NCBI GenBank assembly: GCA_963666985.2
Contig: CAXXIA010000002.1
Span: forward strand, 1,824,001 to 1,888,000
DNA from: Spirochaetia bacterium
GTDB taxonomy: Bacteria; Spirochaetota; Spirochaetia; DSM-2461
Direction: 5' to 3'
DNA length: 64,000 bases
The notes beneath the pieces are model-generated. The model saw only the letters and a program-made list of their open reading frames with translations, did not search any database and had not been told where the DNA came from. Below, in pieces: positions 42,697-51,295 of this stretch. Position numbers and translations under genes: made by a program. The stretch's first letter is position 1. Each line of letters begins with the position of its first letter.

Positions 42697-43260
42697 TTAT
42701 TTTTTGGCAAACGCCGATAATCCATTACGTACAACTCTGATCATATTAACATTTTCTTCAAAACGATCAAGAATTTCAGCATAAATTTCGATACATTGCT
42801 GATCTGGACGTGTTACAGTTTTCTGAAGAAGGTGATAGACGTCTTTTTCATGAAGCCCTTTTTCTGCTAATTTAATCTGTAACTCTCGTTTTGTCTCATT
42901 AAGTTGAATATGACCTAGTGCTGTTTCCTTTAGTATAGAAAGCATTCGATCAAATTCATTCTGTAGACCTTTCTTTTGCTTTTCAAATTGTCTTTTTTCT
43001 GTCATTAACCGAACTACAATTGCTACACCAACACCCGCTACTACACCGACAAGCAATGTCACAATTCCGAGAGTGAGGGTTAGTACATTTAAAGAAAAAG
43101 AAAAGAAATTATTTGAATCATCAGGAGATAGTAATCTCTCACCTGGACTAGTCATTGAGGATTGAGAGGAATGGTCAGCACCAATCTCAGCATGCATATC
43201 TTGAGTTTGAGCAGAAAGACAAGCACTAAATAATAATATAAAAATGGCTAATCTTTTCAT
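42697..43260 (-). CDS. Hypothetical membrane protein (signal peptide plus TM)
   Basis: Start overlaps the response-regulator stop. Confidence 0.7.
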   Translation of the reverse strand: MKRLAIFILLFSACLSAQTQDMHAEIGADHSSQSSMTSPGERLLSPDDSNNFFSFSLNVLTLTLGIVTLLVGVVAGVGVAIVVRLMTEKRQFEKQKKGLQNEFDRMLSILKETALGHIQLNETKRELQIKLAEKGLHEKDVYHLLQKTVTRPDQQCIEIYAEILDRFEENVNMIRVVRNGLSAFAKK

Positions 43261-43628
43261 ATAGCTATTGATCTTCTCAGTGTTTCAAGGTCAATTGGTT
43301 TTTCAACAATATTCAACTTAGTATCTTTTGGAAAAGCTTGAAGAAGCTCACTTCGTGATCTTGCTGATATTACGAGTATGGGTACTTTTTTATTTTTGGC
43401 CCGAATTCGTTGATATAACGCAATGCCTGTTTCTTTTGCTTCTTCAGGATCCATAGAATCCGCGAGTTCCATCATTATGTCTAAAATTATTATATCCTTT
43501 TTCACAACTTCATTTAAATCAGTAATTACTCCTTCAGCATCTGTATATATACTAACTGAATGATGTTTCTTTAGCAGTCTATAGTTTTCAACAGCATCCG
43601 GGTCATCTTCGATAATGACTATTTTCAT
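43257..43628 (-). CDS. Single-domain response regulator
   Basis: IIEDD, IILDIMM, ISAR and EKP motifs. Confidence 0.9.
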   Translation of the reverse strand: MKIVIIEDDPDAVENYRLLKKHHSVSIYTDAEGVITDLNEVVKKDIIILDIMMELADSMDPEEAKETGIALYQRIRAKNKKVPILVISARSRSELLQAFPKDTKLNIVEKPIDLETLRRSIAI

Positions 43629-45750
43629 ATCTATCCTCCTGATCATATCTCACTGGTAAAGAAAACGAAAACACTATAATTGAACCATTCTGTTCAACGG
43701 AAACTTTACCACCATGAAGTTCAACAATTCTTTTAACAAGAAATAAACCAATTCCAGTCCCCTCCATTTTACGAAGCATCGGTGCTTTGCCCCTAACATA
43801 TTTCTCGAATATTATAGACTTTTCTTCCTCTGTAATATGATATTTTGAAGTTTTATTTAAAACTCGAACCCACAAATAGCTATCAATAACTTCACCATAA
43901 ATTTCAATATAAGAGTCTTTATCAGAATATTTAATTGCGTTTTCAATTAACGCATGAAAAGCCATAGATATCGCAATAGAATCACTATATGCGCTGTTTA
44001 AAAGAGAGTTCTTATTCTCGTGTATAATTCTTCTTCGTCTTCTTGCATAAGGCTTTGCAAAGGCTAATACCGGTGCTATGGATTCCAAATAAATGTTTCT
44101 ATATTTTTTCTCTTTTACTACTTCTTCTGGATTTAACGTAAGAGATTTCACTATCCATTCTAGGCGGGCTGCTGTTGATCGAAAATCTCTAAAATAATTA
44201 GAAAATTCTTTTGGTAAGGTATCTTCTTCAATCATACCGTGGGTATGCATTAATTCTATTATTCTATCAGGAGCAAATAGGAAAGAACTGATTGGAGTTC
44301 GTACCTCGTGGCGAAATGTCCGCATATAATCAGTAGCTTGCTCAAGTTCCACTTTTCTTTTTTCTGCAAGCTCTTGTCTTTGTTTATAAGTTTGCTTCTG
44401 ATCAATAAGATTCGCTGTTTGCTCAGCAACACCTATAAGATTATGTATATCAATACTACAGAACTGCGAAGGCTGGTTCCCATCTGTTTCAACCTTATTT
44501 TTACATCTAATAACTCCAAGAAATTCGCCTGTGTGATTTCGAATCGGTACTGCCAACCAGTTCCTTGGTTTTGTAATTGTTGGATCATTAACAATGCGCG
44601 AATTTCTTGGATCATTTTCAATGTCATAAGAGCATTCAAATCTCAATTTGGGTTGATTTATAAAATTGGTTGTAAGAGCCTTAGAATCGATTTGATAGTA
44701 CTCATTATGTTCTGATGTATTAACATTCATGCCTAGTGTACCCAATGAAATTCTTGTTATTCGACGTAGCTGTTTTTCATAAATGAACATTGCACAAGAT
44801 TCCCAGCCAAGAAATTTGCATACAGATTGCGTTATTTTGTTACCGGAGATCTTAATGCTCCATTCTAACTCAATCGCACTTATCTCTCTCTTAACGCTAT
44901 TTAAATCTATAAAACGATCAAAAAACCGTCCAGCTAGATCTCTCTCCAGAATCGAACGCAATAGATTTACCGTCTCAGTTTGGATAATTAAACCGGTATG
45001 CTTGGAGTAGAAAAGAATCAACAGTTTAAGACTCTCTTCTCTTTTATTGTCTGGAGCGCTTACCCAAACTACATTTGCAAATCTCAGATTTGCATTCATA
45101 ATATCAGGTGTTATGCCTGCTTCTATTCTATAATTGCTATGTAGTTCCATACGTTCTACAGCGTTTTGGAAAATTGGAGATAGATCAAGATCGGCATACT
45201 CCTGTAAACATTTTATACTGCCACATAATCGAGTAAAAGCCTGAGTCATGCTGTTATAAATCCAAGCTGAGTACTCGTCGCAAAACATATATTTTGTAAA
45301 TGACATAAGTATTTTATTGGATGATCGACCGTTATCTACGGTAGAAAGTTCATGCAACAAAATATCTTTAGTTTTTGATTTAAATTGATCTACAAGCCTC
45401 ATTGCTTTCTTGTAAAGACTGTTTTGATATATTGCTGAATATAAAAATAGAACTGAAAAATTAGGTTTTATTATAACTATAGTATTCCCAAAGACAAAGG
45501 CTAAGAATAAGCCAATGCCTTTATCGATAAAATTTCTTCTCCGTGCATTTCTGGCAGTCATTAATCTGAACCGATTAATTCCTTTCGTATATAGTCGAAC
45601 AACTTCATAGGAAGAGTTTTTTCTTATTCGAAACCAATATCTATCCTCGTATTTATGGAATACACAAACCATTTTAGATGACCAGTTGGTATCGTAAGTT
45701 GTGTGTGTTTCCAAATTGAATTCCTTTGCTTGGACAGAATAAAAAATCAT
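43603..45750 (-). CDS. GAF-containing sensor histidine kinase
   Basis: FRHEVRTP, LIENAIKYS and GTGIGL motifs; WLAVPI GAF-like segment. Confidence 0.9.
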   Translation of the reverse strand: MIFYSVQAKEFNLETHTTYDTNWSSKMVCVFHKYEDRYWFRIRKNSSYEVVRLYTKGINRFRLMTARNARRRNFIDKGIGLFLAFVFGNTIVIIKPNFSVLFLYSAIYQNSLYKKAMRLVDQFKSKTKDILLHELSTVDNGRSSNKILMSFTKYMFCDEYSAWIYNSMTQAFTRLCGSIKCLQEYADLDLSPIFQNAVERMELHSNYRIEAGITPDIMNANLRFANVVWVSAPDNKREESLKLLILFYSKHTGLIIQTETVNLLRSILERDLAGRFFDRFIDLNSVKREISAIELEWSIKISGNKITQSVCKFLGWESCAMFIYEKQLRRITRISLGTLGMNVNTSEHNEYYQIDSKALTTNFINQPKLRFECSYDIENDPRNSRIVNDPTITKPRNWLAVPIRNHTGEFLGVIRCKNKVETDGNQPSQFCSIDIHNLIGVAEQTANLIDQKQTYKQRQELAEKRKVELEQATDYMRTFRHEVRTPISSFLFAPDRIIELMHTHGMIEEDTLPKEFSNYFRDFRSTAARLEWIVKSLTLNPEEVVKEKKYRNIYLESIAPVLAFAKPYARRRRRIIHENKNSLLNSAYSDSIAISMAFHALIENAIKYSDKDSYIEIYGEVIDSYLWVRVLNKTSKYHITEEEKSIIFEKYVRGKAPMLRKMEGTGIGLFLVKRIVELHGGKVSVEQNGSIIVFSFSLPVRYDQEDRYENSHYRR

Positions 45751-48379: not shown

Positions 48380-48594
48380 ACCAAACAGCTGTTGATGCGC
48401 TCCGAATACATTTGCAAGCAAATGTATTCTCCGGGGCTCCGCCCAAATTTCGCTTTGTCCATGTTTCTTGCAGATGCGTTCCTGGAAGTGGTGTGATAAG
48501 GTGAACAGCGAACAGGCTTTCTGGCGAAGTGCAAGAACGCATGCCAACCGGCTTCGCCGGACGCGAAACTTCGCATACCAGCGGGCCGTTAAAT
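48380..48594 (+). repeat. attC site 24
   Basis: AAC 48384, GTT 48588. Confidence 0.9.
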
Positions 48595-48633
48595 GAACTA
48601 TGAGAATTCTTTATAGCTTGAAGGAGTCGATTT

Positions 48634-51021
48634 ATGGAAAAAATAATAGTTAAAATCGATGCCTGTGGATCAAAAGAGCATGTATCTAAATCAAAAGAAG
48701 AAAACCAAGCAAGAGAAAAACTCCTCCAACAGATTACAAACATTGCGAAAGAAAACTATCCAAAAACTGAAAAAATATACCCAGATGGCACAATATATTC
48801 CGCTCAAGGTGATTGTCTCAATTTAATCCTTGATCGCCCAAACGTTGCACTACGCTCTACGGTCAATTTCATGAAAGCTTGGTACGCTCACCTTGGAACA
48901 TATCCTGATTGCAGAGCTATTATCACAAAAGCTGACGTCGTTGAAAATAATTCCATTGGGAAGATGGAACTCCTATCGCGGGGATTCGAAGAAATATCAA
49001 AGATCGAAAAGCACGCAGATGCTGGAGAAATTCTTATTACAGATCCAATAAGACACGTGGCAGAAAAAGGCACCTTTACTTATACTGGACCTATACCACA
49101 CAGAATCTCTTCCTCTCATACGATAAACTCCTACAAAGTAAATTATCTAAATCCTAGAACGGCTAGTGATAGCAGTTTAGTTCATGCTTTGTTTATTGCA
49201 AATCCGGTATCGGATGCAGTAAGAGTGCGTACATATGAAGTCGTTACGATTGAATTCTTGCTAAATAACACCGGAAAACAATCGGTCGACATCCTAATTG
49301 AGTATTTAAAAAGCAAAGACTTCCCTCAAATTGATAAAAAGACATTGCTAGAAATACTTGGAAGTTCAGAGTATATCCAATCAGTTAACACTGAAATTTC
49401 ACTTAGATCAGGAATTGAGGACAAGCTTCGCGGTTTTCGTGACGTCTACAATACTGAAAGGAAAGAAACTACAGAGTCAATTGCAGAGGAATTAGGTAAA
49501 GCACTAGGCTTAGATTCAGAATATATCCAAGAGAATATTAGCCTCGATAAGTTAATCGAAGAATATATAAGTGCAGTTTTTTTGGAAATCAGAATGATGG
49601 CTAATTTCTATAGGTTAGAAGAGAAGTTTTTTGAACAGCTTGCTATCAATAAATCATATGATCATATTTTTCACCGTCATTTTCAGAAACTCAACCTAAA
49701 GGACGAGGAGATTGACGAATTTAAGAGAATTTTCCTAACAGTTTTAAATAGACACAGTATAGAAGAAAACAAATATTTCGCAGCGATTTTTCATAATGTA
49801 TTGCTAGTCTATTATATGAATAGAAATGATAAGTACATTGTTGAACAAATTGATAATCTTCGAAACAAATATATATTACTGGATACCAATGTACTATACG
49901 CACTTCAATGTAAGGCGAGTGAATATAATTCGTTTATTTCTCATGCAGTTAGTAAACTAAAATCTATCGGCGTAACAATAAATGTTTTTGACCGAAGCGT
50001 TTATGAATACAATGAATCACTTCTAAGTGCGGACCATCAGTATAAAAAGCATGGTGAGATAGCTTTTCGTTTCGACGGATACAATCCCTGGATCTGGAAT
50101 GAATTTAAAACAAATAGGGATGCCTATATGAATGATTTTAGCTATTGCATACAGTTGCACACAATACCTAAGAATCTTGGAAAGACAATTCTTATAGACA
50201 CTGATAATCCTCCAGACGAACTTAATGAAATTAATTTGAATGTTGTTAAGTTAGAACCGTTTTATGAAAAGGAAGATTTAGGAGATTATTACAGTAAGAC
50301 AGCAGAGGCGAAGCGAAAGTGGTTCGATTCAGAGCATACAGTATATTGGCTTGAAAATAGCCAGGAATACGAAGAAAAAGTATTGCACGATGCTAACTGC
50401 ATTAAACATTTGGAATGTGTTGGCGATACACCGTACGAAACGTCGAATATTTTCATTACCTGTGATTTCAGATTTGCAAAGATTCGTAAAATGTTTGATC
50501 CGCATATTAATTACATAACAACAATTAAAGAGTTTCAAGAATTTATGATGCCATATTTACTCCTTGATGTTACTGAAACTGATACGAAAATTGCTACGCC
50601 CAACTTGTTATTAGCATCGGCTATCGGGTCTGAGCTTGCACATACAAAGGAACTTGAAACAGTTGTAGGGGGCTTTCTTAGACACGAACATAAGTCTGCA
50701 TCAGAATTCGAAATATTGAGACGTGTAAAAAGTAAGAAAAGATTTGAAAACATAGAAGAAAAATGTTCATTTGAAAAGCTAAATACAGAGAATAGTAATG
50801 ATTTCATAAATGACGCTTCTGCTTTTGCAGATGATTATCAGTCAACATTAAGAGAAAATCTCTCAAGATCATTTGCACAGAAATCGATCGAAAGAATTAT
50901 GAAAGAAAATGCAGAGCTTAAAGCTCAACTTAAAGAAAAAAATCGTGTGGTTGATGTAGTAGAAAAAAAACAACGGGGCCGGGAAAAATACCAAAGAGCA
51001 CAAAAACGTCGAGTGCCATAG
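48634..51021 (+). CDS. Class III nucleotide-cyclase-like domain fused to a PIN-like domain
   Basis: VKIDACGS, QGDC and KIEKHADAGEILIT in the N-terminus; ILLDTNVL, LHDA and FITCD in the C-terminal half. Domain calls are by eye. Confidence 0.65.
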   Translation: MEKIIVKIDACGSKEHVSKSKEENQAREKLLQQITNIAKENYPKTEKIYPDGTIYSAQGDCLNLILDRPNVALRSTVNFMKAWYAHLGTYPDCRAIITKADVVENNSIGKMELLSRGFEEISKIEKHADAGEILITDPIRHVAEKGTFTYTGPIPHRISSSHTINSYKVNYLNPRTASDSSLVHALFIANPVSDAVRVRTYEVVTIEFLLNNTGKQSVDILIEYLKSKDFPQIDKKTLLEILGSSEYIQSVNTEISLRSGIEDKLRGFRDVYNTERKETTESIAEELGKALGLDSEYIQENISLDKLIEEYISAVFLEIRMMANFYRLEEKFFEQLAINKSYDHIFHRHFQKLNLKDEEIDEFKRIFLTVLNRHSIEENKYFAAIFHNVLLVYYMNRNDKYIVEQIDNLRNKYILLDTNVLYALQCKASEYNSFISHAVSKLKSIGVTINVFDRSVYEYNESLLSADHQYKKHGEIAFRFDGYNPWIWNEFKTNRDAYMNDFSYCIQLHTIPKNLGKTILIDTDNPPDELNEINLNVVKLEPFYEKEDLGDYYSKTAEAKRKWFDSEHTVYWLENSQEYEEKVLHDANCIKHLECVGDTPYETSNIFITCDFRFAKIRKMFDPHINYITTIKEFQEFMMPYLLLDVTETDTKIATPNLLLASAIGSELAHTKELETVVGGFLRHEHKSASEFEILRRVKSKKRFENIEEKCSFEKLNTENSNDFINDASAFADDYQSTLRENLSRSFAQKSIERIMKENAELKAQLKEKNRVVDVVEKKQRGREKYQRAQKRRVP

Positions 51022-51024
51022 TTC

Positions 51025-51295
51025 ATTTAACAGCTGTTGATGCGCGGCGGCCGCTAATGGGATTAGCGGCCTTGGGCCGAGCGATGGAAAACAATGAGTT
51101 TTATGATTTATGTAAAAGGGAGAAATGAAATTGGTTCGGCTCGGCCAAATTTCGCTTTGGCGATGGCTCTTGCAGATGCGTTCTTGAAAGTTGTGTGATA
51201 CTCTGAAGAGCGAACGAGCTTTCTGCTAAGAGCAAGAGCACATGCCAACCGGCTTCGCCGGCCGCGAAACTTCGCATACCAGCGGAACGTTATTC
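51025..51295 (+). repeat. attC site 25 (long variant)
   Basis: AAC 51029, GTT 51289. Confidence 0.9.

Follow-up and report, generated by a model that had tools for sequence, protein, structure and literature searches.

Cyclases and PIN domains occur in conflict systems as separate effectors, to judge from the available part of PMC7159879. In Pycsar, a class III cyclase (PycC) is found with an adjacent PycTM or PycTIR effector, and an N-terminal helix is given as the hallmark of PycC in the accessible portion of PMC11224242. Loci with several cyclases are noted in the available text of the Pucsar survey (bioRxiv 10.64898/2026.08.12.744502). Among PIN systems, DS-3 and DS-5 are described in the accessible part of PMC13092281, where defence by a single PIN gene is established for DS-3.

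We analysed a stretch of 64,000 nucleotides from a Spirochaetia bacterium (the window) and followed up one gene in it, P0001, whose product is predicted to carry a class III cyclase fold and a PIN fold in the same chain. A defence role of some kind for this protein is highly probable. In the reading that we put forward, it is an anti-phage protein whose two outputs are separate: one is a PIN ribonuclease that restrains itself, the other an atypical cyclase that is probably active. We hold this reading tentatively, as somewhat short of probable.

The P0001 cassette and its array

P0001 is an intact ORF, and its ATG is preceded at 8 bases by GAAGGAG. The features of the locus, in window positions, are the following.

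48380..48594, + strand: upstream attC-like repeat, whose GTTAAAT core (48588–48594) opens the P0001 cassette
48589..51289, + strand: whole single-gene cassette, 2701 bp (core/inverse-core match)
48620..48626, + strand: ribosome-binding site GAAGGAG (sequence)
48634..51021, + strand: ORF P0001, 795 aa, with cyclase-fold, winged-helix, helical and PIN parts and C-terminal helices
48634..49152, + strand: predicted class III nucleotide-cyclase fold, aa 1–173 (profile, Foldseek, model), with K7, D9, S13, K14, G59-D60, R94, E112, E119, E125 and K126 conserved
49201..49458, + strand: predicted winged-helix domain, about aa 190–275 (PadR Z 7.1, LOTUS Z 6.9; modest scores)
49459..49863, + strand: helical region, in which the motifs FxEIRxMANYF and FHNVLxxYYLNR are conserved
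49864..50559, + strand: predicted PIN fold that contains an extra segment of about 90 aa (model and conservation)
50581..51018, + strand: C-terminal helices ending in a 45-residue helix (749–793), a predicted coiled coil, and a basic tail (model)
51025..51295, + strand: the cassette's own attC-like repeat, from ATTTAAC (51025–51031) to GTTATTC (51289–51295), about 270 bp

GTTAAAT at 48588 and ATTTAAC at 51025 sit within a perfect 15-bp inverted repeat, and they are the complementary core and inverse core of attC-type sites by which an integron gene cassette is recognised. The single-gene cassette proposed in the initial annotation is thus confirmed. P0001 is its sole gene; no antitoxin gene lies inside, so that the cognate antitoxin of a VapBC pair is absent from it. 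A promoter scan of the cassette scored at the chance level (12 versus 9.1 ± 2.9).

The cassette belongs to an integron-like array on contig C2 with 78 attC-like repeats across 154 kb, and the core/inverse-core rule holds in 66 of the 77 intervals. This array (window 2700–62110; G000:C2:1777136–1933511) has attC-like repeats of about 200–270 bp; the usual attC sites are shorter. The recombinase at the array head scored below the TIGR02249 cut-off with profile positions 178–239 missing, and it is without the specific insertion of IntI that marks a canonical integron. Encoded in the cassettes next to P0001 are a toxin of the MazF type, together with its small partner, and an Mrr nuclease; toxin–antitoxin cassettes flank P0001.

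Also inside the array, the minus strand carries a pair made up of histidine kinase and response regulator (43603–45750 and 43257–43646), which runs against the usual cassette orientation. The only product of another cassette (G000:C2:1817053–1818306) is a TIR protein of the CAP12 type, whose N-terminal part has no assigned family. It was considered as a possible receiver of a signal from P0001 and was rejected, being without a CNBD on inspection.

Predicted folds and the cyclase pocket

No usable match for P0001 was found in Pfam, PADLOC or NCBIfam; with PADLOC 2.0 (2023 library) it had no system match, and no family matched more than one of 38 relatives. A single-sequence search of the PDB returned G-alpha noise only. 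The full-length predicted model has a pLDDT of 89.3 and a pTM of 0.88. A second model, of residues 180–672 with the cyclase domain and the tail omitted, has a pLDDT of 79.6 and a pTM of 0.58, and the difference in pTM between the two suggests that the domains pack together.

All the motifs quoted in the initial annotation are present (IDACGS at aa 8, QGDC at 58, GEILIT at 131, LLDTNVL at 415, HDA at 585 and FITCD at 607). The class III cyclase that it placed at the N-terminus was borne out by a profile of 79 relatives, which matches the adenylyl cyclase Ma1120 (E=2e-7), and by the model, in which residues 1–173 match Rv1264 best among class III cyclases (Z 19.4, rmsd 2.5, 154 aligned) and the PycC structure 7r65 with Z 15.3. 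The top structural matches are all cNMP cyclases, and GGDEF and Cas10 palms score far lower. The profile and the model thus predict a class III catalytic-domain fold. In the model the domain begins at the first strand (2–10), and the N-terminal PycC helix is absent.

What had been called a helical linker is a helical region that also contains the predicted winged-helix domain. The coiled-coil tail of the earlier reading is a single helix in the monomer model, and the coiled coil is therefore only predicted.

The PIN-like domain was likewise recovered, from the 180–672 model: residues 412–631 match VapC with Z 8.8 (rmsd 3.2, 133/137 aligned), and VapC or VapBC titles account for 7 of the best 14 structural matches. 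Foldseek with the PIN part gave nothing at E≤0.001 (E=0.11 only), and the match is for this reason weaker than that of the cyclase; Pfam PIN matches in the relatives stay below cut-off. The acidic tetrad is conserved (D417 in 58/58, E458 in 61/61, D586 in 62/65 and D611 in 60/60), and from their motifs we take these four to correspond to the VapC catalytic residues. N419, H585 and T609 are likewise invariant or nearly so. With a PIN fold and an acidic catalytic tetrad in the model, P0001 is predicted to be an RNase.

Pocket residues were counted in 84 non-redundant unfused cyclase domains. Both metal Asp residues (D9 and D60) are kept together in 82 of these, with D9 and D60 each present in 82 and the phosphate-binding Arg (R94) in 79. 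K14 and K126 are found in 79 domains each, K7 in 80 and E125 in 82. The base-reading site 112 is E or D in 74, and the first base-reading site, 56, is K or R in 37.

In alignments to Ma1120 and four PycC proteins, the Asn site is taken by E119 and the Arg site by K123, so that the register in which the initial annotation had read a change from N/R to E/K is right. However, K123 is not a family trait: site 123 is V in 39, I in 14 and K in 13 of the 84 domains, and non-basic in about 70. The transition-state pair of Asn and Arg/Lys is therefore missing, with E at 119 in 74 domains and V or I at 123 in 53. The four neighbouring PycC proteins have Asn at the first site and Lys, not Arg, at the second. 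Ma1120 is reported, in the accessible part of PMC4215837, to be active with Ala (A164) at the Asn site and its Arg kept.

Judged from these counts, the pocket is under strong selection yet non-canonical. Catalysis by the P0001 cyclase domain is plausible, and K126 may substitute for the Arg. The conserved pocket residues are also those required merely to bind NTP-Mg.

Relatives of P0001 and alternative readings

An exhaustive search of 1.84 billion representatives at 50% identity gave 95 relatives, most of them with a constant architecture. The named loci are distributed over Desulfobacterota, Zixibacteria, Spirochaetota, Actinomycetota, Acidobacteriota and Gammaproteobacteria. The family is rare, being present in 2 of 301 genomes of Spirochaetota; L007 is a relative in a same-phylum genome, G216. 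No family relative was found among 251 pattern matches on viral contigs, in 50,697 phage records or, with residues 180–672 as the query, in 72,556 plasmids. Searches with the body alone and for the cyclase domain in longer proteins returned family members only. As the method is limited to shared words, cyclase-less relatives rest on an Atlas lead, namely clusters of 537–628 aa without a common Pfam family that score 0.90–0.94 to residues 180–795. A wider cyclase-less winged-helix/PIN family may exist.

In two proteins, P0073 and P0076, a FliG_C-like domain takes the place of the PIN body behind the same cyclase subtype, whose pocket residues are intact; the cyclase domain can therefore move on its own. 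Many relatives are interrupted by IS, stops or frameshifts (L007, L010, L013, L017, L046, L047 and L050), some of which may be assembly errors. Defence genes that carry a cost are often interrupted in this way.

In some relatives a further enzyme is fused at the N-terminus: a nucleoside phosphorylase (P0023), a metallophosphoesterase (P0086), a GT4 glycosyltransferase (P0096, too short and left out of the Asp count below) or an alpha/beta hydrolase, which is Pfam-supported for P0037/L028 and P0040 and assigned by resemblance only for L029, L031, L034, L043, L045 and P0144. Ten domains have more than 60 residues in front, one of which (P0137) has a short extension, no enzyme and an intact pocket. 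None of the remaining nine, the fused forms, has both Asp residues in register, each having lost at least one; in two of them an Asp is one place off, but the E119–K126 helix is missing. In seven fused proteins, 17 of 77 cells at pocket positions agree with the consensus of the unfused domains, against 79 of 84 at the other conserved cyclase-domain positions and 47 of 49 at the PIN residues; the corresponding unfused figures are high by construction. In a tree built on residues 180–670, fused forms are nested within each of the two main clades, and the nine represent about three to four independent events. P0043 is unfused, yet its pocket has decayed.

Since the pocket decays while the PIN residues are kept, it is probably not the obligatory trigger of the PIN domain. 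From these sequences, the PIN body may work without the pocket, which would be dispensable once another enzyme arrives, as fits a second output.

The second comparative signal comes from gene neighbourhoods, for which 60 loci collapse to 45 at 90% identity. The adjacent PycTM or PycTIR effector of a Pycsar system is absent from the P0001 cassette and genome; a PycTM lies within 2.3 kb in six of the 45 related loci (L011, L013, L015, L016, L023 and L032) and none was seen in the other 39, many loci having short flanks. Of the 16 loci whose flanks both reach 2.5 kb or more, 4 have one. As background, one PycTM copy is present in 20 of 301 Spirochaetota genomes, a figure per genome and not per defence island. 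The PycTM gene is directly upstream of the family gene in L013, where the two overlap by 8 bases, and in L032, where 30 bases separate them; neither locus has a PycC in 14 kb. The L013 family gene has an in-frame TAA at codon 326, and the Pseudomonadota genome of this locus has 23 other class III cyclases.

The L013 and L032 effectors form one PycTM subfamily, with six further members from plasmids and 1,203 genomes; a search in 401 genomes of one phylum gave no members. PycC directly follows PycTM in five of these six (two nearly identical, one with a split PycC), and the sixth, L065, has no cyclase at all. In a small PycTM tree, L032 groups with L067 and L013 with L064, and the partner family genes of L032 and L013 belong to different clades. 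The PycTM of L067, which is paired with PycC, is 44% identical to that of L032. As the two loci are in different branches of both gene trees, replacement of PycC seems to have happened twice, an argument that comes from two loci.

Other neighbours of family loci are defence and mobility genes (type I RM, DruE-like helicase, PDC-S11, TIR, integrases). The L015 locus (L015:2165–7453) encodes three cyclase-fold proteins in one same-strand run, consisting of PycTM, two different PycC (one with AGS-C) and the family gene; its 434-aa gene was considered as a CBASS enzyme and rejected, as it is the PycC with AGS-C. In the P0001 genome (93% complete), we found no PycTM, PycC-like stand-alone cyclase or CNBD-TIR, and the cassette therefore acts alone there. 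The Pycsar-effector link and the enzyme-fused forms favour the cyclase domain as a separate output.

These data bear on a different reading, in which the cyclase fold is a non-catalytic sensor: it would gate the PIN domain by binding NTP-Mg or a cNMP, the latter supplied by cyclases of the host or by a Pycsar system nearby. The pocket agrees with it in that the Asn site is Glu, the Arg site is mostly Val or Ile and the kept residues are metal and phosphate binders. So do the loci, as a PycC of their own is present in four of the six with PycTM, and at L005 a membrane cyclase is found 130 bases upstream. In other conflict systems, inactive cNMP cyclases have been proposed as nucleotide binders (available part of PMC7159879). 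However, a sole gate should not allow pocket loss that spares the PIN residues, and the two operons of PycTM and family gene without PycC are left unexplained. The domains that replace the pocket, such as nucleoside phosphorylase and hydrolase, are moreover typical effector enzymes. We consider the sensor unlikely; the nucleotide-sensing version of the initial interpretation keeps some probability, because most members are without a basic residue at the Arg site.

The other version of that interpretation, a self-contained signal-plus-RNase, has the P0001 cyclase make a cNMP by which the PIN domain in its own chain is activated. Both folds and the defence setting are supported. The constant architecture of most relatives, usually as a lone gene, and the joint packing suggested by the pTM values are also consistent with such a relay. 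Yet its self-contained part is weakened, as the models have no recognisable cNMP-binding domain, the PIN residues outlast pocket loss, and the Atlas lead points to cyclase-less look-alikes of the body. It now appears distinctly improbable.

We give similarly little credence to ordinary co-location, by which a PIN defence or addiction gene would come to lie near Pycsar through shared islands, or would cooperate with it without a common signal, and would perhaps be a stabilising toxin cassette in this array. Operons that combine Pycsar with type IV Thoeris show synergy but no cross-activation between the two, according to the available part of PMC13069673, most family loci are without Pycsar, and P0001 has its flanking toxin–antitoxin cassettes. 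Against this, the tight junctions of PycTM with the family gene are in the PycC slot, twice independently; the strong selection on the pocket would be left without a function to account for it, and the cassette has no antitoxin gene. Finally, other chemistry of a palm-like domain coupled to the PIN cut, such as nucleotide transfer to RNA ends or protein, or NTP hydrolysis, would agree with the presence about a two-Asp site of K7, E119 and K126, which are invariant and specific to the family, with the loss of the residues that stabilise ring closure and with a similar role proposed for PAACC cyclase-like effectors (10.64898/2026.10.19.760177, available part), but it is very improbable given that cNMP cyclases take all the top structural matches, far above GGDEF and Cas10 palms, and that the PycTM link indicates a cyclic mononucleotide.

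Proposed mechanism and comparison with known systems

In the two-output reading that we prefer, P0001 would dimerise via its C-terminal helix, by which both the cyclase sites and the PIN sites would form. An infection cue would be sensed by the body (winged helix or helical region) and not by the cyclase pocket, and the activated PIN domain would cut RNA and thereby stop the infected cell. The cyclase domain would convert an NTP to a cyclic or otherwise altered nucleotide, with the metal held by D9/D60, the phosphates by R94/K14, and E119/K126 standing in for the customary Asn/Arg. At loci with PycTM beside the family gene, the product would open this membrane effector; in the P0001 cassette, without such a partner, the nucleotide would be a toxic or accessory product.

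A broader claim is possible, though we regard it as doubtful: the family may be a new branch of cNMP immunity, in which a Glu/Lys cyclase carried on its own PIN ribonuclease can replace PycC to fire PycTM. One protein would then both cut RNA and send an alarm, possibly with a nucleotide new to Pycsar, and the front slot would be exchangeable for other toxic enzymes. If this is true, current Pycsar profiles miss a cyclase lineage, catalysis has a route without the textbook Asn/Arg pair, some 'orphan' PycTM genes are explained, and there is a defence chassis encoded by one gene (winged helix, helical region, PIN) in which the enzyme slot can be exchanged and no NTPase is present. The two comparative signals, front-slot exchange and the Pycsar link, make the mechanism testable. 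With the L032 pair and the intact lone P0001 cassette, the models of a signal-maker, a sensor and a self-relay can be tested directly, and two point mutants separate them.

No cyclase–PIN fusion was found in the full-text literature, a search whose coverage mostly excludes subscription journals, and figures or supplements of two preprints could show one. 'PIN' does not occur in the main text of the Pucsar survey (10.64898/2026.08.12.744502). Within the literature searched, the P0001 architecture is undescribed and is assembled from known parts.

With Pycsar (PycC with PycTM or PycTIR) and Pucsar, P0001 has in common the class III fold with two metal Asp residues and the defence context; its relatives adjoin PycTM, twice in the place of PycC. 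Unlike PycC, it has Glu in place of Asn and in the model is without the N-terminal helix, and it is fused to a winged helix, a helical region and a PIN domain, usually without a separate effector. It had no match to the PADLOC PycC profiles at E≤1; our own four-sequence PycC profile gave 2.4 bits and a profile–profile comparison 89.7%, which indicates distant homology only.

The compact class III adenylyl cyclases (Ma1120, Rv1264, Rv1900c, CyaB) are the best matches (E=2e-7, Z 16–19), and the xQGD motif and the tolerance of residues other than Asn are common to both. They have only 12–20% identity to P0001, however, and are housekeeping signalling enzymes, not nuclease fusions. Unlike them, the P0001 family has a mostly hydrophobic Arg site, and K7, E119 and K126 are specific to it.

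With VapC toxins and with DS-3 and DS-5 (DefensePredictor), P0001 shares the PIN fold with four acidic residues and, as in DS-3, there is no antitoxin gene. In P0001, by contrast, the PIN domain carries an insertion of 90 aa and lies inside a chain of 795 aa. DS-3, as described in the accessible part of its source, has a PIN domain split between the termini and no cyclase, and it is set apart from P0001 by this description.

PAACC, compared by description (10.64898/2026.10.19.760177), has neither PIN nor PycTM in the contexts given in the available part of that text. In the STAND-fused 'immune clade 1', the VMAP systems and PAACC, the cyclase slot is exchangeable with nucleoside phosphorylase, hydrolase and other enzymes, as in the P0001 family. 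The P0001 family differs from these conflict-system cyclases in having no NTPase, and the constant part is instead its winged-helix/PIN body.
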